Shown piece by piece: positions 4,229-63,004 of a stretch of 64,000 bases of DNA. The notes under the pieces are model-generated. The model saw nothing but the letters and a program-made list of their open reading frames with translations, made no database searches and was not told the origin of the DNA. Source of the DNA: Spirochaetia bacterium (GTDB lineage: Bacteria > Spirochaetota > Spirochaetia > UBA9216); assembly GCA_963675665.1 (NCBI GenBank), contig OY776510.1, positions 832,001-896,000 of the forward strand, in the 5' to 3' direction. Each line of letters begins with the position of its first letter. Position 1 is the stretch's first letter. The position numbers and the translations under genes were made by a program.

Positions 4229-4234
4229 ATTTAC

Positions 4235-4454
4235 TCCTACAAAAACTGCTTGCCACGGACGGCAGGTTACGGAGAATGAAGTTTAAAAGTCTTATTTTTA
4301 AACTTCAAGATAAAAAAGAACATGGATGTTCTTTTTTTATCCGTCCTGCAAAAAATCCCTGCCATGGATGGCAGGTTACAGTGAATGAAGTTTAAAAAGT
4401 CTTATTTTTAAACTTCAAGATAAAAAAAGAACACGGATGTTCTTTTTTTATCCG
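4235..4454 (-). mobile_element. Two tandem copies (109 and 111 bp) of a triple-hairpin non-coding element inserted at the ybaB Shine-Dalgarno site
   Basis: TCCT cores at 4235, 4344 and 4455 delimit two near-identical units. Each unit has three hairpins: cctgccatggatggcagg; tgaagtttaaaaa..tttttaaacttca; gataaaaaaagaaca-cgga-tgttctttttttatc. Confidence 0.8.
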
Positions 4455-6013
4455 TCCTGCACAATTTCACCGCGAAAAACCTTCTTAACCGCATCAACCT
4501 GTTTGTTCAGATTATGCTGTCCTTCATCGATTTCCCTTGTTTTACCTGTCTGAACAACTTCAACTTCGATAATAAACTTTTTGCCTGTAATATCCGTTAA
4601 CGCGTCCTGAATAATGTTTCGATCGTTTTTTACAACCGATGCGGTATAGCCGTTATCAAAAGAAAAACTTATACTGTCGCCGGATTGCCGCCAGCCGACA
4701 GCCTGGTCTATTGATGCTGCAAGAGTCAGTTTCTTTTTACGTATTGCATTAAGCACCGCGTCCCTCTGTTCCGATGTCAGTCCGGTTTCAGAATGATGAA
4801 TTTCCGGTTGGACAGATTCGGTAACAAAAGGATTTTCGTTTTCATCTTCCGCTTTTTCTTCAAATTCTCCGGCGGCAATATTCTGTTTTAATTTTTCCAG
4901 TCTGTCATAAACCTCTGCAGGCGAAATCCATGCAGCAAGATCGGATAATTGCGCAAGGACCAGTTCAAGTTCAAACCTCGGATTAATTGAATAACGGACA
5001 TCCCTGTAAAATGAAAAAATCAGTTCGAGAGCTTTTTCAAGCTGGCTCTTGTTGAAAGCGTTCACGGTTGTTTCTGAATAACGCGCGCGGGCATATCCAA
5101 GCAATGATTCTTTTTCTATTCCGCAGCGTATAAATAAAAGGCTCCTGAAGTATTCGGCCAAATCCACAGCAAATTGTTCAATTGAGACTCCGCCTGCAAT
5201 TATTTCAGAACTCAGTTCCATGACCTTTACGGAACTGCGGGAAGCCATTGCTTCAACTATGACATTCATACTGTCGAGACCGACAAGACCAAGCTTTTCC
5301 CGAATCTTTTCCAGGGTAACCGTACCGTCTGAAAATGCCGCAACCTGGTCAAAGAGGGTATAGGCGTCGCGCATGGAACCGGTTGCTTCTTTGGCAATCC
5401 AGAACAGCGCATCGTCTTCCGCGTCTATTTTCAGCTCTTCAGCCGCCAGCTGAAGGCTGTTTTTTATTTCCTCAAGTGAAATAAGCCTGAAATTAAACTG
5501 CTGGCAGCGGCTTCTTATTGTAGCAGGGACCTTGTGGATTTCGGTTGTTGCAAAGATAAAGATAATATATGGCGGCGGTTCTTCTATTGTTTTTAAAAGC
5601 GCATTAAACGCCGAATTAGACAGCATATGAACTTCGTCTATTATGTACACTTTATAGCGGCAGGAATTGGGCGCGAAAAGAACTTCATCCTTAATCTCGC
5701 GGATGTCGTTGACCGAGGTATTCGAAGCACCGTCAATCTCTATTACATCGAGAGCATTGCCGCGCGCAATTTCCGTACAGGCAGAACATTTTCCGCAGGG
5801 TGTCGGAGTAGGTCCTTCTTCACAGTTAACCGCCCGGGCCAGAATACGTGCGGCCGAGGTTTTTCCGACGCCGCGCGGACCCGAAAAAAGATACGCATGG
5901 GCTATTCGGCCTGCCTTTATTGAATTCTTTATTGTTGATACGACGAATTCCTGGCCGACAAGATCTTCGAACATGCCGGGACGCCGCCGCGTTGCTGTTA
6001 CTTCATATGCCAT
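4448..6013 (-). CDS. dnaX: DNA polymerase III subunit gamma/tau
   Basis: GPRGVGKT Walker A, IIDEVHML, SRC motif, C4 zinc finger. Start placed at MAYEV. Confidence 0.97.
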   Translation of the reverse strand: MAYEVTATRRRPGMFEDLVGQEFVVSTIKNSIKAGRIAHAYLFSGPRGVGKTSAARILARAVNCEEGPTPTPCGKCSACTEIARGNALDVIEIDGASNTSVNDIREIKDEVLFAPNSCRYKVYIIDEVHMLSNSAFNALLKTIEEPPPYIIFIFATTEIHKVPATIRSRCQQFNFRLISLEEIKNSLQLAAEELKIDAEDDALFWIAKEATGSMRDAYTLFDQVAAFSDGTVTLEKIREKLGLVGLDSMNVIVEAMASRSSVKVMELSSEIIAGGVSIEQFAVDLAEYFRSLLFIRCGIEKESLLGYARARYSETTVNAFNKSQLEKALELIFSFYRDVRYSINPRFELELVLAQLSDLAAWISPAEVYDRLEKLKQNIAAGEFEEKAEDENENPFVTESVQPEIHHSETGLTSEQRDAVLNAIRKKKLTLAASIDQAVGWRQSGDSISFSFDNGYTASVVKNDRNIIQDALTDITGKKFIIEVEVVQTGKTREIDEGQHNLNKQVDAVKKVFRGEIVQDG

Positions 6014-6083: not shown

Positions 6084-6185
<102 letters not shown>

Positions 6186-6191
6186 AATATA

Positions 6192-6276
6192 CGGAGAGAG
6201 GGGGATTCGAACCCCCGGTACCTTTCGATACACACGCTTTCCAAGCGTGCGCCTTCGACCGCTCGGCCATCTCTCC
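6192..6276 (-). tRNA. tRNA-Ser(GGA)
   Basis: GGAGAGA acceptor, CACGC-TTGGAAA-GCGTG anticodon arm, long variable arm, GGTTCGAATCC. CCA is not encoded. Confidence 0.96.
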
Positions 6277-6329
6277 TGAAGGTTATTTTTTACTGTTTCA
6301 GGTTGAACATAAACCGTAAACAGTGCTGA

Positions 6330-6514
6330 TCGGAGAGACAGGGATTCGCCTTCCGGCTCCACACATCCCGTGCGTATCCTTCAGGCCGCCTCTTTCGCTG
6401 GCGGCCGGCATCCGTGCCGTCCTCTCCTCGCCGGCTCGGCGCTCATTCGGTTCGAATCCCGTATAAACTATATTAAAGTATTAATAAAATATAATACTTT
6501 AAACAGTTGTTTCT
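6330..6514 (-). repeat. 185-bp tRNA-linked element bounded by a 19-bp duplication of the tRNA-Ser(CGA) 3' end
   Basis: tcggagagacagggattcg occurs at 6330-6348 and 6515-6533. The interval holds an inverted T-arm copy (ggttcgaatccc at about 6449-6460) and GC-rich hairpins. Confidence 0.7.
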
Positions 6515-6515
6515 T

Positions 6516-6603
6516 CGGAGAGACAGGGATTCGAACCCTGGGTACAGACGAGCTGTACAACGGCTTTCGAGGCCGCCCGATTCAACCACTCTCGCATCTC
6601 TCC
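6516..6603 (-). tRNA. tRNA-Ser(CGA)
   Basis: GCGGC-CTCGAAA-GCCGT anticodon arm, long variable arm, T-loop. Confidence 0.96.
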
Positions 6604-6628
6604 CTGAAACCCCGTAAGGGAAAAAAAG

Positions 6629-6702
6629 TATACCCAAGAGGACTCGAACCTCCGACCTTTAGGTCCGCAACCTAACGCTCTATCCAACTGAGCTATGGGT
6701 AC
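6629..6702 (-). tRNA. tRNA-Arg(GCG)
   Basis: GTACCCA acceptor, TTAGG-TTGCGGA-CCTAA anticodon arm, GGTTCGAGTCC. Confidence 0.95.
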
Positions 6703-6859
6703 CTGTAAAACTTTCAAAAATCGGTTATTTTTGAAAGTTTTTTGAATTAAAACGACCTGAAGACAGAACGTTTTAATTCCAAGTTCTTCCGGTAGAACCG
6801 TTAAAAATTGAAATTTTTAACGGGCCTTCGGAATTATAACACAAAAATATATAAAAAAA

Positions 6860-6946
6860 CGGAGAGGGAGGGATTCGAACCCTCGGTACCGTTGCCAGTA
6901 CAACTCCTTAGCAGGGAGCCCGATTCAACCACTCTCGCACCTCTCC
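6860..6946 (-). tRNA. tRNA-Ser(GCT)
   Basis: GCTCC-CTGCTAA-GGAGT anticodon arm, long variable arm. Confidence 0.96.
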
Positions 6947-6968
6947 GGTTAAACCAAATATAAAAATA

Positions 6969-7053
6969 CGGAGAAGGTGGGATTCGAACCCACGGAACCT
7001 TTCGGCTCAACGGTTTTCAAGACCGCCTCCTTCGACCGCTCGGACACCTCTCC
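6969..7053 (-). tRNA. tRNA-Ser(TGA)
   Basis: GCGGT-CTTGAAA-ACCGT anticodon arm, long variable arm. Confidence 0.96.
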
Positions 7054-25691: not shown

Positions 25692-25804
25692 GATTATAAA
25701 ATGAAGTACAACCTTCCCCGGTCCTTTGCTTGCTTGAACCGGGGAATGAGGGTTTACTAATATATTTTTTTGTCGGGCCGCCTTGGCCCGTGCAATCTAA
25801 GGAG

Positions 25805-25902
25805 TAATAAAAAATAACCTCCATGTTATTTTTTATTTTGAAGTTTGAAAATTCTTTCAAACTTCATCTCCGTAACCGCTTCCATGCGGAGAATTTAAGG
25901 AG
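25805..25902 (+). mobile_element. Triple-hairpin element (98 bp) at the metK Shine-Dalgarno site
   Basis: TAAGGAG is repeated at 25798-25804 and 25896-25902. Hairpin order and the tctccgtaacc linker match the 4.2-4.5 kb units. Confidence 0.78.
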
Positions 25903-25910
25903 AAGAAAAT

Positions 25911-60149: not shown

Positions 60150-61406
60150 TTACACAAGTCCGGGAAAATCAAGAGTGGCAAAATAATCATTCGGCGTTTC
60201 TGCACGTCTGATCTGAACTACTGATCCGTCGGGTTCAAGCAGCAGTTCAGCGCTTCGTAATTTTCCGTTGTAGTTGAATCCCATTGCATAACCATGTGCT
60301 CCTGTATCATGGAACACAAGGACGTCTCCACGTTCGAGATGCGGCAGTTCCCTGTCAATTGCGAACTTGTCGTTGTTCTCACAGAGGGAACCTGTTACGT
60401 CAACCGGGCCTTCGACAGGTTTATTTTCCTTGCCTATCGGTGTGATATGATGATATGCCCCGTAAAGCGCAGGTCTCATCAGGTTGGCCATTGAGGCATC
60501 CATACCGATAAAAGTTTTATATGTCTCTTTTCTGTGAAGAACCTTTGATACCAGGTAACCGTATGGCCCCATAATCATTCTTCCGGATTCCATTACGATT
60601 CTCAGTGCCGAAAGGCTGTTTTTCTCAATTTTTTCTTTATAAAGAGCTTTTATTCCGGCAGAGACTTTTGCAAGATCTACGGGCTCTTCTTCCGGTTTGT
60701 ACGGAATACCTATACCGCCGCCGAGATTAACAAAATCAAAGGTAATACCAAGTTCCCTGTTCAAATCGAGAACAAGTTGAAAAAGAATATCGGCGGTTTC
60801 AACAAAATATTCCCAGTTAAGCTCATTTGAGGCCACCATTGTGTGAAGGCCGAAATGTTTAATGCCTTTTTCTTTTAATCTCCGGTATCCTTCAAAAAGC
60901 TGTTCACGTGTAAAACCGTATTTGGCCTCTTCCGGCTTGCCTATAATAACATTTCCTTCCTTCAGGGGGCCCGGGTTGTACCTGAAGCAGATTCCGTCGG
61001 GAATACCGGCTGCTTCTTCCAGATAATCGATATGACTGATATCATCGAGATTAATGATTACGTCAAGTTGCCTTGCTTTCAGATATTCTTCAGCCGGGGT
61101 GTCGTTTGACGAAAAGAAAATCTCGTTTCCTTTCAGTCCGACTGCATCGGCGAGCATCAGTTCAGGCAAAGACGAACAGTCAGCTCCCATTCCTTCTTCC
61201 CTGAGTATTTTCATAATATGCGGGTTCGGACAGGCTTTTACAGCAAAAAAGTTTTTAAATCCGCCCGGAACCCAGTTGAAGAGCTTATAGAGCTTTTTTG
61301 CATTTTCCCGTATCGCTTTTTCATCATAAATATGAAATGGTGTAGGGTATTTCTCAATAATCTTTTTAAGCTGCTCTTCTGAAAAGGGAAGCGTTTTAAT
61401 GCTCAT
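60150..61406 (-). CDS. lysA: Diaminopimelate decarboxylase
   Basis: FAVKA, NLGGG, ESGR, RPALYGAYH, GSLCENND, GAHG. Confidence 0.93.
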   Translation of the reverse strand: MSIKTLPFSEEQLKKIIEKYPTPFHIYDEKAIRENAKKLYKLFNWVPGGFKNFFAVKACPNPHIMKILREEGMGADCSSLPELMLADAVGLKGNEIFFSSNDTPAEEYLKARQLDVIINLDDISHIDYLEEAAGIPDGICFRYNPGPLKEGNVIIGKPEEAKYGFTREQLFEGYRRLKEKGIKHFGLHTMVASNELNWEYFVETADILFQLVLDLNRELGITFDFVNLGGGIGIPYKPEEEPVDLAKVSAGIKALYKEKIEKNSLSALRIVMESGRMIMGPYGYLVSKVLHRKETYKTFIGMDASMANLMRPALYGAYHHITPIGKENKPVEGPVDVTGSLCENNDKFAIDRELPHLERGDVLVFHDTGAHGYAMGFNYNGKLRSAELLLEPDGSVVQIRRAETPNDYFATLDFPGLV

Positions 61407-61468
61407 TTGGATCTCCTATAAAAAGTCAACCACAAGCTAAAAATATAAGCTTATGATCTGGTCGGATA

Positions 61469-62581
61469 TCAACCGACCATTACAGCTTCCCATGCTGCTG
61501 CCTGCATTTCCCTGTATTCTTTTCTAAAAGCCATTTTCATCGGATCAAACGGCTCTCTGGTTTTTAAAATTGTATATACCAAAGTGCTCATCTTGCGGGC
61601 GGCAGCTATTACACTCTTACCCGAGCCTTTCTGCTTCTTCATCGCTGCATACTTCGTCATTATTCGGTACGTCCCGGTCTTCTTTTGCATACGAACCATT
61701 CCCATCACCATCTGTACGAAGGCTGTCCTCAGTTCTACAGGCCCACGCTTTGTTATATGTCCATGATGTATTGTCATATTTGAGTTCTGCACCCATGGCA
61801 CAAGCCCGGCGTTTGCTGCATATTTCTTCGCACTATCATATCTGCCGATATCGTCTGTATAGGCTCTTACTGTTGCTGCTGTTATTAGACCCACGCCTGG
61901 TATTGTCTGCAGAAGCTCAACATCTTCATCGTCCTCCACAAGCTCAGCCAAAACCTTTTCAAGCTGCTTGACTTGCGATGCCTGATTATCTATCATATCC
62001 AGTAACGGTATTACCGTTTTGGCAGCGCTTCCGTAAAAGTCGTGGTCCTCGAGACCGTTCAGGATTCGCTGCCTTTCTTTTTTACTCTGCAGCTGTCCGC
62101 GTTTGGTCTCTATTCCATAACCAAGTAATAAGCCATGCACCTGGTTCTTTAACGACACAACAGATTTTACCAGTATCGACCTGGATTTCAGCACCCTTCG
62201 AATATCCTCACTCTCTTGGGAACATAATATCGATTCAGGCAGCATGTCTTTCTCAAGAAACTCCGCCAGGGTGCGTGCATCATGTTTGTCTGTCTTTTTT
62301 ACAGATTCATTCACTACCTTGAATTTCAAAGTATTCACTACAACCACTTCGACTCCAGCCTTTAACAGTTTATTGCGGAAATAACGGGCATTCCCGGTTG
62401 TTTCCACCGCTGCTCTCAACTCATATTCCTCTTCACAATATTCATCCAGCATTTTCAGAAATGCTCCATAACCATTTCCGCTGGTCGGATACATTCCCAA
62501 TTGATCAATTTTTCGGTCTTCACTTAAAAGGCATACTGTAAACTGCGTTTTGTGAAGATCCACGCCAATACTCATCTTCAT
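61469..62581 (-). CDS. IS110-family DEDD transposase / bridge recombinase
   Basis: RuvC-like GVDLHK, AVETTG and KTDKHDA (DEDD). Tnp domain TIPGVG, AGLVPWVQNS, ITKRG, AAARK. Confidence 0.96.
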   Translation of the reverse strand: MKMSIGVDLHKTQFTVCLLSEDRKIDQLGMYPTSGNGYGAFLKMLDEYCEEEYELRAAVETTGNARYFRNKLLKAGVEVVVVNTLKFKVVNESVKKTDKHDARTLAEFLEKDMLPESILCSQESEDIRRVLKSRSILVKSVVSLKNQVHGLLLGYGIETKRGQLQSKKERQRILNGLEDHDFYGSAAKTVIPLLDMIDNQASQVKQLEKVLAELVEDDEDVELLQTIPGVGLITAATVRAYTDDIGRYDSAKKYAANAGLVPWVQNSNMTIHHGHITKRGPVELRTAFVQMVMGMVRMQKKTGTYRIMTKYAAMKKQKGSGKSVIAAARKMSTLVYTILKTREPFDPMKMAFRKEYREMQAAAWEAVMVG

Positions 62582-62616
62582 GTTCTATCTCCAATAGTTT
62601 GAAGCAGTGCCTATAC

Positions 62617-62776
62617 GGTGAATTGTTCCATTCTCCTATCCGGTCTCGCAGACCATTGAATGTTTCGGTTACGGCTCTTCAATCTCCTAAACGGTCTCGC
62701 GGACCAGTAAAAATGTCGAACAGTAACCTTACTGCCTCAATTAAAGTTAAGGCAGTATATCAATTCACCAGCTCAT
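62617..62776 (-). ncRNA. Putative bridge RNA in the IS110 left (upstream) non-coding end
   Basis: Closing stem ggtgaattg/caattcacc and a 5' hairpin tactgcct..aggcagta. Two internal-loop arms are capped by GGTC(C/T)GCGAGACC, each followed by TAGGAGA. Confidence 0.72.
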
Positions 62777-62794
62777 GAAGACTTTTTATCATTC

Positions 62795-62937
62795 CTCCTA
62801 TAAAAAGTTCCCGCATGGATGCGGGTTTTAAGAGGTGAGGTTGTAAAGCTAAACTGCGTTTGCAGTTTAAACTGCGTTGCAGTTTTTGTTTTACAACTTC
62901 AAAATGATAAAATTGCATGGAAGCAATTTTATCATTC
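62795..62937 (-). mobile_element. 143-bp triple-hairpin non-coding element with the same termini as the adjacent IS110
   Basis: Left end AGGAG|GAATGATAAAA and right end ACTTTTTATAGGAG are identical to the IS ends. No ORF. Confidence 0.82.
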
Positions 62938-63004
62938 CTCCTGAAATTATTTACGGCCCGCTTTTTAAAAGCCGTTATACATGAGTATTTATGTTAATGA
63001 CCGG

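Follow-up and report, generated by a model that had tools for sequence, protein, structure and literature searches.

In 2007, TD-1 and TD-2 were put forward as candidate structured RNAs known solely from Treponema denticola, with TD-1 "usually in a 5' regulatory configuration" (Weinberg et al., PMC1950547), and a census reports many repeats resembling transposable elements of the miniature inverted-repeat type (MITEs) in Spirochaetes, its account of these repeats drawing no link to insertion sequences (ISs) of the IS110 family (PMC11602168). Within that family, ISPpu9 of Pseudomonas putida is accompanied by MITEPpu9 (ssr9), which was shown to form minicircles (Pares-Guillen et al., 2025, PMC12288879), a gutted ISEc11 moves when its transposase and non-coding region are supplied in trans (seekRNA; Siddiquee et al., 2024, PMC11187229), and IS621 excises mainly as a single-stranded circle by donor recognition only (2026 preprint, 10.64898/2026.08.31.748434). 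A TD-2 repeat family and, separately, an IS110-linked MITE are hence already in print. Here we describe a 143-bp unit in which the two may meet, found in a 64,000-nt stretch of a Spirochaetia bacterium genome (contig OY776510.1, positions 832,001 to 896,000 of the forward strand; hereafter "the window", to whose coordinates all bare positions refer), where it directly adjoins a 1382-bp IS110-family element and shares both of its ends.

This unit is a spirochaete three-hairpin repeat of the TD-2 type, in TD-1 orientation. Its subfamily, bounded by GGAG, lies directly at ribosome-binding sites (RBSs) and has both recombination ends of an IS110 clade. Judging from sequence comparison, we regard the members of this subfamily, on balance, as probable non-autonomous, MITE-like passengers of that RBS-targeting clade.

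A unit with the ends of the adjoining IS110-family element

On the minus strand the locus reads TTTCAGGAG | GAATGATAAAATTGC...GGGAACTTTTTATAGGAG | GAATGATAAAAAGTC...(IS)...GTTGACTTTTTATAGGAG | ATCCAA ATG, and comprises the following features:

62938..62941, minus strand: left GGAG, the core copy (original Shine-Dalgarno sequence) on the left flank of the unit
62795..62937, minus strand: 143-bp mini-element, i.e., body plus right-hand GGAG (62795-62798), with the IS-like left end GAATGATAAAA and the right end ACTTTTTATAGGAG
61413..62794, minus strand: IS110-family insertion sequence, 1382 bp including the right GGAG (61413-61416), one of 15 near-identical copies
62582..62794, minus strand: left-end non-coding region of the IS, 213 nt, two-loop bridge RNA (five-orthologue alignment and consensus fold)
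61469..62581, minus strand: recombinase gene, 370 aa (DEDD_Tnp_IS110, PF01548, 64.9 bits; Transposase_20, PF02371, 64.3 bits; both over their cut-offs)
60150..61406, minus strand: downstream gene, a pyridoxal phosphate (PLP)-dependent Orn/DAP/Arg-type decarboxylase (Pfam), whose RBS is the insertion site

Unit and IS each start with GAATGATAAAA immediately after a GGAG and each finish with ACTTTTTATAGGAG. The common left end, AGGAGGAATGATAAAA, is identical over 16 bp and the right end over 14 bp, exactly the coordinates and identities given in an earlier note made from these letters alone. Within the window, GGAGGAATGATAAAA has two matches at up to two mismatches (0.34 expected; 5 of 100 shuffles reach two), and ACTTTTTATAGGAG has five, two of them exact (0.62 expected; 0 of 100 shuffles reach five). 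Excising unit and IS in silico leaves TTCAGGAG-ATCCAA-ATG, the restored site that the note had proposed, and the decarboxylase orthologues of 5/5 congeners have a plain RBS with no unit upstream. Its description of the unit as lacking any open reading frame (ORF) is true only loosely: there is no transposase in the unit, and the sole ORFs that overlap it are of 52 and 41 aa.

The IS and its predicted bridge RNA

This genome (G000, one contig of 5.15 Mb) has 15 copies of the IS, 99.9-100% identical, every one of which has GGAG at both ends, lies before a start codon and is co-oriented with the gene. The right GGAG stands 6 nt from the ATG in 12 copies, 5 nt in two and 7 nt in one, and the dinucleotide 5' of the left GGAG is TA in 13 copies and AA in two, usually within a T-rich run. 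The right end of the IS is TTTTTATAGGAG and therefore replaces the Shine-Dalgarno (SD) context that is split by the insertion.

In the consensus fold of the bridge RNA, derived from five orthologues (four at 50-53% aa identity), 17 of the 37 predicted pairs have compensatory changes. The 5' strand of the target loop, CATTTTTAC, is complementary to the A-rich-N-ATG of the right flank, and its 3' strand, TTTAGGAG, runs in the sense of the left flank plus core; the donor loop of this IS is ATTC / ATAGGAG. Across the five orthologues, the donor-loop 5' strands (ATTC/ATAC/ATAC/ATGC/ATAC) match the respective left ends (GAATG/GTATG/GTATG/GCATG/GTATG) and the 3' strands (ATAGGAG or ATGGGAG) match the right ends, i.e., the guides change together with both IS ends and with the target flanks. 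This comparison shows a target loop predicted to read (T)TA-GGAG plus A-rich N6-ATG, and a donor loop predicted to read ATAGGAG on the right and GAATG on the left. The unit likewise shows both putative donor half-sites with the flanking core, and the IS right end rebuilds the SD of the gene. When the IS ends are joined they form TTGACT-17 nt-TAAAAA with TG upstream, from which we infer a junction promoter of the kind described for IS621 (PMC11208160).

An Oceanispirochaeta and a Syntrophales metagenome-assembled genome (MAG) contain closer relatives of the IS, at 74-79% aa identity, whose 26-nt left end and right end are identical to those found here, and 19/19 of their copies examined lie at RBSs preceded by ACA or AAA, with no unit or stem-loop. 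Because the same ends occur in these relatives' genomes, which have no TD-2 match, they belong to the IS itself, and an origin of the IS ends by copying from local units is unlikely.

A second, unrelated IS110-family element (387-aa ORF, ~1.5 kb) has seven copies in the genome and none in the window (G000:C1:2046239-2047740, and at 553739, 2621203, 2818563, 3725153, 4981504 and 5030457). Six of the seven sit at another repeat (GGGGACTTCTAAAA...), and the copy at 2621203-2622704 lies within the hairpin-1 loop of a unit, with a copy of the IS described above ~100 bp away. Separately, sequencing runs X8 and X10 each yielded one contig (depth 5-8, near single-copy) with an IS joint, 61432/62762, made of the first 37 nt of the left end, six extra letters and the last 20 nt of the right end. 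The sequence was not found in the assembly, and could be a ~63-bp deletion derivative of the IS or an assembly artefact.

Three hairpins with compensatory stem changes

Folded as RNA, the unit has a minimum free energy (MFE) of -56.8 kcal/mol, against -26.5 +/- 3.5 in 200 shuffles (z -8.57; 0/200 equal it), and folded as DNA its z is -8.84 (0/200 again). The folds contain three hairpins:

62902..62937, minus strand: hairpin 1, (G)AATGATAAAATTGC / loop TTCCAT / GCAATTTTATCATT, with the IS-like left end as its 5' arm (folds)
62836..62901, minus strand: hairpin 2, stem GTTGTAAAAC...GCTTTACAAC around two aaactgc..gcagttt sub-hairpins (folds)
62810..62825, minus strand: hairpin 3, CCCGCATCCATGCGGG then AACTTTTTAT, terminator-like (sequence and RNA fold)

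Both sub-hairpins are visible within hairpin 2 in the DNA fold, in keeping with the three hairpins and the duplication that had been claimed from the letters; hairpin 2 is here an enlarged version of the family hairpin GAAGTTTG...CAAACTTC. The base of hairpin 3 is predicted in the RNA fold to be lengthened by pairing of CCUCU with the downstream AGGAG (the SD). Among 51 full-length units, compensatory changes keep hairpin 1 (distal stem) and hairpin 2, one pair being GC in 22 units, UA in 16 and AU in 8. In gene sense, the loop is TTCCAT(G) in hairpin 1 and ATCCATG in hairpin 3, which gives a common motif, (T/A)TCC(A/G)TG, near the ends.

A dispersed family matching Rfam TD-2

The opposite strand of the units matches Rfam TD-2 (RF03162, clan CL00124), and we accordingly rejected the unit as a new family. 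TD-2 has 42 matches in the genome, 18 of them above the Rfam cut-off, and an nhmmer profile made from 30 copies has 85. In 65 of these 85 units an RBS and start codon follow within 60 nt 3' on the same strand, with an ORF of at least 50 codons; for the other 20, an IS comes next in five, another unit in eight and neither in seven. The dispersed family proposed in the earlier note is therefore real, and most of it lies directly 5' of genes. GGAG is present at the left flank in 38 of the 60 units whose 5' end is covered.

The copy beside the IS scores 35.2 bits against the TD-2 model (E 0.0047), under the gathering cut-off of 48.7, because its hairpin 2 is enlarged. It has the three hairpins in the TD-2 order, AYGGAY being the loop of two of them when the TD-2 strand is read, scores 80.2 bits (E 1.3e-22) against the nhmmer profile of the genome's units, and is 81-88% alike to its nearest relatives in the genome, as a divergent TD-2 relative. 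TD-1 gave no match in E-value scans of two unit regions. Three other copies in the window pass the TD-2 cut-off:

4231..4461, minus strand: two tandem units before ybaB (TD-2, 67.5 and 54.9 bits; nhmmer; gene name from Pfam)
25798..25909, plus strand: unit before metK (TD-2, 49.3 bits; nhmmer; gene name from Pfam)

All three are in sense orientation and finish at (A)GGAG N5-8 ATG. The recurrence claimed earlier at ybaB (twice) and metK holds for the copies, their orientation and the gene names, but not for identity of the ends, which are only similar to the IS termini: the ybaB units start AGGAC|GGATAAAAAAAG and the metK unit AGGAG|TAATAAAAAA.

Tandem arrays occur elsewhere in the genome. One consists of five units at G000:C1:1652328-1652895 (period ~112 bp, nearly uniform, 98-99% identity), another of three units at G000:C1:2973058-2973374 (period ~101 bp), two of which are near-identical and one of which has different stems; array junctions read ...AGGAG|GA(A/T)T...ATGATAAAA. 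A variant of the unit has hairpin 1 swapped for a left module, GGAGGAATGATAAAGA(T/A)AGCCTAAGGTGCA..., at G000:C1:4212079-4212165 and 1527127-1527213, and also in G008:C153 (right flank of L078).

Left ends of units track the resident IS

The left 15-mer GGAGGAATGATAAAA is present 34 times in the genome, 15 times in the IS and 19 times elsewhere, and GGAGGAATGATAAA is present 36 times, with 0 occurrences of its T, C and G variants. G215, a complete genome from another family, has ten IS left ends that read GGAG|GTATG, together with eight further matches to GGAGGTA[TC]GATAAA that lie outside the IS; the A form is absent. Of these eight, seven read as units that finish ...TTTTTAT(G)GGAG, then N5-8 and ATG (the eighth has no further hairpins), and one G215 unit has the IS's own right end, TTGACTTTTTATGGGA. 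The units of G250 start GGAGGTA[TC]GATAAAAAG, like the IS of that genome, with 5 exact unit copies and ~15 GTACG copies. Overall, the left-end motif of units is only GTATG or GTACG in G215, G025 and G052, and only GAATG in G000. The position at which IS left ends differ is read by the donor loop and differs likewise in local units, so that units of three lineages (G000, G215 and G250) bear the left end of the resident IS (GAATG vs. GTATG).

Flanks are similarly informative. Immediately 5' of their left GGAG, 13/38 units have CA and 9/38 have TA, compared with 207 and 91 of 1623 ordinary RBSs (four of the 13 CA cases are junctions within one array), in agreement with what this IS (TA) and its 79%-identical Oceanispirochaeta relative (ACA) prefer.

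Filled and empty sites and the order of events

We compared 27 unit loci of congeners with this genome, taking as orthologues genes with at least 60% aa identity from residue 1 and setting aside nine loci where these were lacking or doubtful. At the 18 loci with an orthologous gene, the unit is also present in G000 at 11, which correspond to ten distinct loci and often have compensatory stem changes, and absent at seven. Six of the seven read T_L-GGAG-T_R in G000 and T_L-GGAG-[unit...GGAG]-T_R in the congener, with alignable flanks (T_L and T_R). Run in this way between species, the search for empty and filled alleles suggested in the earlier note thus returned six orthologous RBSs that are filled in one species, empty in the other and bounded by GGAG. 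In G008, a congener with IS relics, 6/8 units with comparable orthologues are absent from G000. Arrays hold unlike units, and the orders unit-then-IS and IS-then-unit both occur; mixed arrays are the outcome expected of repeated insertion at a regenerated right junction.

The order of events at the decarboxylase can be read from a 347-nt contig of an independent marine metagenome run, in which 61412 is joined to 62795, skipping exactly the 1382-bp IS (14 letters are common to both sides), and which covers 128 nt of the unit with two differences. Since this IS-free allele has the unit, the unit came first, and the IS is a later, polymorphic insertion at its right junction. Contigs of the runs showed neither a unit-empty allele nor a joint between right and left end, which in contigs speaks neither for nor against such forms. 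The IS inserts there because that end is an RBS of the TTTATAGGAG type, and the shared right end arises because the IS resembles its own target. Upstream of the 15 IS copies, a unit is detected by nhmmer in five and a hairpin-3-like stem by eye in seven.

How a passenger could move

On the passenger reading, an IS copy would supply the recombinase and bridge RNA in trans, and the ends of the unit would be joined at GGAG. The intermediate may be a single-stranded circle with folded hairpins (cf. the 2026 IS621 preprint); by analogy, single-stranded excision would ease the circularising of 100-150 bp and let the hairpins fold. The circle would then be pasted into another RBS, giving T_L-GGAG-[unit...TTTATA-GGAG]-T_R, that is, a new structured 5' untranslated region (UTR) with the SD restored. 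At the locus studied here, the right junction of a unit already in place would have been an ideal target for the IS. The spread of the units looks older, and was probably driven by earlier residents of the same IS clade.

Weighing the passenger and its alternatives

A number of observations weigh against this reading. The left GGAG is missing in 22/60 units, both ends match the present donor loop exactly in only about a dozen units of the genome (by eye), with mismatches being poorly tolerated in IS621 (PMC11208160), and the spacing from GGAG to ATG is 5-9 nt for units read by eye as opposed to 6 in most IS copies. No two dispersed units exceed 88% likeness (median 63%), and only tandem neighbours reach 97-99%, so that dispersed units lack the recent near-identity of the 15 IS copies (99.9-100%): there is a recent IS burst in the genome without visible movement of units, as far as the sequences record it. 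The metagenome allele that lacks the IS keeps the unit, and the IS is not commoner at unit-backed sites: among TATAGGAG-N5-7-ATG sites, a unit lies upstream of 5/15 that are occupied and 15/34 that are free, on which grounds a preference of the IS for units as such was rejected.

Part of the distribution across genomes points the same way. Four complete single-contig genomes of genus g6 (G025, G052, G075, G095) hold 21-72 TD-2 matches and have no PF01548 match at E <= 0.001, a partial realisation of what the earlier note had said would refute mobilisation, namely copies in genomes that never carry this IS110 clade. The two of these four that were sampled for the IS-like left-end motif, G025 and G052, have nine matches each to it, and the nine of G025 all read as RBS-abutting units, 7/9 coinciding with TD-2 matches. 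Conversely, four genomes with IS relatives at 50-79% aa identity (G174, G054, G447, G448) have 0 TD-2 matches, and in the Syntrophales genome G448 the 15-mer count equals the IS copy number. In G215 and G250, the top-scoring TD-2 copies lack GGAG at their ends and are not directly next to an RBS. IS and TD-2 matches are found together in G000, G215 and G250, to which G008 can be added for its IS relics, and TD-2 matches without the IS in G025, G052, G075, G095 and several MAGs. Within the order of G000, TD-2 matches are present in 5/5 congeners and the transposase, at E <= 1e-20, in 0/10 other genomes; this absence is not robust, since these genomes are MAGs in draft form and remains of the IS survive in G008 (a stretch of 102 nt from the left end, 88% identical, and, where a contig starts, a sequence resembling the right end). 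The left-end fragment, L098 (G008:C379:2182-2285), stops inside the first bridge-RNA loop and runs into unrelated sequence, and may be a relic or an assembly join.

The earlier note had put forward a MITE-like family mobilised in trans by an IS110 recombinase. The family, the termini, the covariation of the left end and the filled and empty RBSs speak for that proposal, but the divergence of dispersed copies and the units in IS110-free genomes do not.

Somewhat unlikely in our view, although best placed among the alternatives, is that the units are structured repeats of the host (5'-UTR or intercistronic, of TD-1/TD-2 type) which the IS does not move and whose right end it uses as a preferred, safe landing site. 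Their role would be that of a terminator or attenuator, an SD-sequestering hairpin or a protein-binding site, as befits a terminator-like hairpin 3 and a fold that pairs the CCUCU linker with the SD. Abundance in complete genomes without any IS110 is readily accommodated, as is the IS-free allele with its unit, and the compensatory stem changes and the ~10 loci kept in G000 and a congener indicate probable selection on structure, which a host function also explains. The right end would be shared through resemblance of the IS to its target (a GC-rich stem-loop, then TTTATA-GGAG-RBS), consistent with the 5/15 copies abutting a unit and the 7/15 with a stem, with a target stem-loop specificity gate reported for ISPpu10 (10.64898/2026.03.19.712850) and with the targeting of repetitive extragenic palindromic (REP) sequences reported for ISPpu9 (PMC12288879). 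The left end would be a common functional box, for example an extended -10 (TGATAAAA) or a short subterminal inverted repeat, and the left-end box may indeed double as a -10 in the putative promoter of the IS circle junction (for the principle, see PMC11208160).

What this explanation leaves unaccounted for is why a GGAG core flanks the unit on each side, why six RBSs show precise filled and empty states, and why the unit left end switches from A to T together with the resident IS left end and donor loop; nor does it sit well with the lack of IS enrichment at unit-backed sites or with the 19/19 RBSs of IS relatives that have neither unit nor stem-loop. The earlier note had itself raised host repeats targeted by the IS as an alternative, and the part that stands is the targeting: the IS does insert at the right end of the unit, and an IS-free allele with the unit exists. 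Targeting alone does not explain why the left end is shared and covaries with that of the resident IS, why GGAG is doubled, or why sites are found precisely filled and empty; a passenger would be expected to show all of these. Both readings may be partly true, as the host can retain a passenger if it provides a working leader.

We give less credence to the units being immobile relics, i.e., one-time internal-deletion derivatives of the IS clade fused to an existing TD hairpin module, which spread in the past and have since undergone drift or co-option, the present IS being linked to them solely by common descent of the ends. Old, diverged copies, units in IS-free genomes, the IS remnants of G008 and units with a 26-nt match to the IS left end (G010, for example) would all fit, but near-identical tandem copies and heterogeneous arrays point to continuing turnover, and G008, with its IS relics, is the genome in which 6/8 comparable units are absent from G000. 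Relics overlap with the passenger reading, and the sole difference is whether mobilisation still occurs. Mobilisation by another enzyme, such as a Y1 (IS200/IS605 or RAYT-type) transposase recognising two TCCATG-loop hairpins as for PATEs/REPINs, is very improbable and was rejected: hairpins 1 and 3 share the loop (T/A)TCC(A/G)TG, adjoin the ends and recall the subterminal hairpins of IS200/IS605 ends, but PF01797 had 0 matches at E <= 0.001 in G000 and five g6 genomes in a search that was positive in 6/14 control genomes.

Implications of a passenger family

Extending the passenger reading, we tentatively propose, at rather less than even confidence, that the TD-1/TD-2 motifs, at least in their GGAG-bounded form, are natural guide-less cargo of bridge recombinases, hairpin-rich and 100-170 nt long, copied out as single-stranded circles and pasted into RBSs through an RBS-programmed bridge RNA. 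If so, each insertion would give a gene a rebuilt SD behind a structured leader with a terminator-like stem and an anti-SD stretch. As the guide reads the SD and start codon and the right end rebuilds the SD, insertion before a gene would therefore spare its translation signal and leave a new leader. The IS110 clade and its passengers would then be an old two-part system that rewrites translation-initiation regions across Spirochaetota, and RNA-guided IS110 recombinases would carry long-lived passenger families beyond the single published Pseudomonas case. It would also provide a mechanistic account for an Rfam family without a function since 2007, and what is annotated as an "RNA motif" just ahead of a start codon may be mobile DNA and not a regulator. 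As natural minimal donors, whose shared parts amount to ~10-15 nt on each side of the GGAG core, the units may help to define what bridge recombinases need in a donor.

Further features around the ybaB units

Window positions 4311-4449 on the plus strand have a weak match to Rfam TwoAYGGAY (RF01731; 29.5 bits, under the cut-off of 43), and the loops of hairpins 1 and 3 there are AYGGAY; the TD-2 and TwoAYGGAY motifs may share a loop-recognising partner. At the left end of the first ybaB unit (4440-4452, minus strand), the upstream ORF, read by eye, seems to stop at a TAA within the unit (...CAG GAC GGA TAA...), and GCAGGAC recurs at the tandem junction of the ybaB units. Nearby, positions 6084-7053 (minus strand) hold a cluster of five tRNA genes adjoining the small signal recognition particle (SRP) RNA.

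Comparison with known systems

Our literature search returned nothing linking TD motifs to IS110, and nothing on spirochaete RBS-programmed bridge RNAs with SD-restoring ends or on lineage-matched termini. Insertion in one orientation between RBS and start codon is a reported trait of IS900/IS901/IS902-type elements of the IS110 family in mycobacteria; a search of PMC8141618 gave no confirmation of it for IS900, and we know of no mini-element associated with insertions of the IS900 type. In the IS described here, it is the 3' strand of each loop that runs in the sense of the left flank, and the order in IS621 is reportedly the opposite.

As in IS621 (Durrant et al., 2024, PMC11208160) and the seekRNA elements, there is a DEDD recombinase, a long non-coding RNA at the left end with two internal loops that match target and donor around a shared core, and a promoter that would be rebuilt across the circle junction. 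Unlike the IS621 described there, the core is GGAG rather than a CT dinucleotide, and the target is an RBS, with a guide predicted to read the start codon.

The units have the three hairpins of TD-2 and TD-1 in the same order, with loops that are AYGGAY on the TD-2 strand and thus RUCCRU in gene sense, and they share with TD-2 the central GAAGTTTG...CAAACTTC hairpin and the many copies per genome, and with TD-1 the position 5' of unrelated genes. They differ from TD-1 and TD-2 as these are presented in PMC1950547 in occurring in another family of the phylum, being bounded by GGAG, abutting RBSs and sharing ends with an IS110-family element. The typical TD-2 copies that we looked at in G215 and G250 have none of the last three traits.

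MITEPpu9 is the nearest counterpart as a mini-element. Like the units, it is described as a short element that lacks a transposase and has near-copies of the IS end boxes, as well as the core of its IS (AG there, GGAG here), at its flanks; it occurs next to the IS or alone and sometimes in tandem, and it has been proposed to use the IS transposase in trans (PMC12288879). It differs in lying downstream of tnp, in having 8 copies, in being restricted to three strains, and in encoding a small RNA complementary to an antisense RNA of the IS. The units described here, known from sequence alone, are a large and old family in more than one spirochaete family, have three hairpins, lie at RBSs and are usually upstream of the adjoining IS.

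Lastly, as with the IS110-family elements that target REPs or bacterial interspersed mosaic elements (BIMEs; ISPpu9, IS621) and with ISPpu10, the IS lies at a fixed distance 3' of a GC-rich repeat stem-loop in 5 to 7/15 copies. In contrast to the gate reported for ISPpu10, the stem-loop is not required, since it is missing at 8 to 10/15 sites here and at 19/19 sites of the relatives, and, unlike REPs, the repeat described here shares the left end of the IS.

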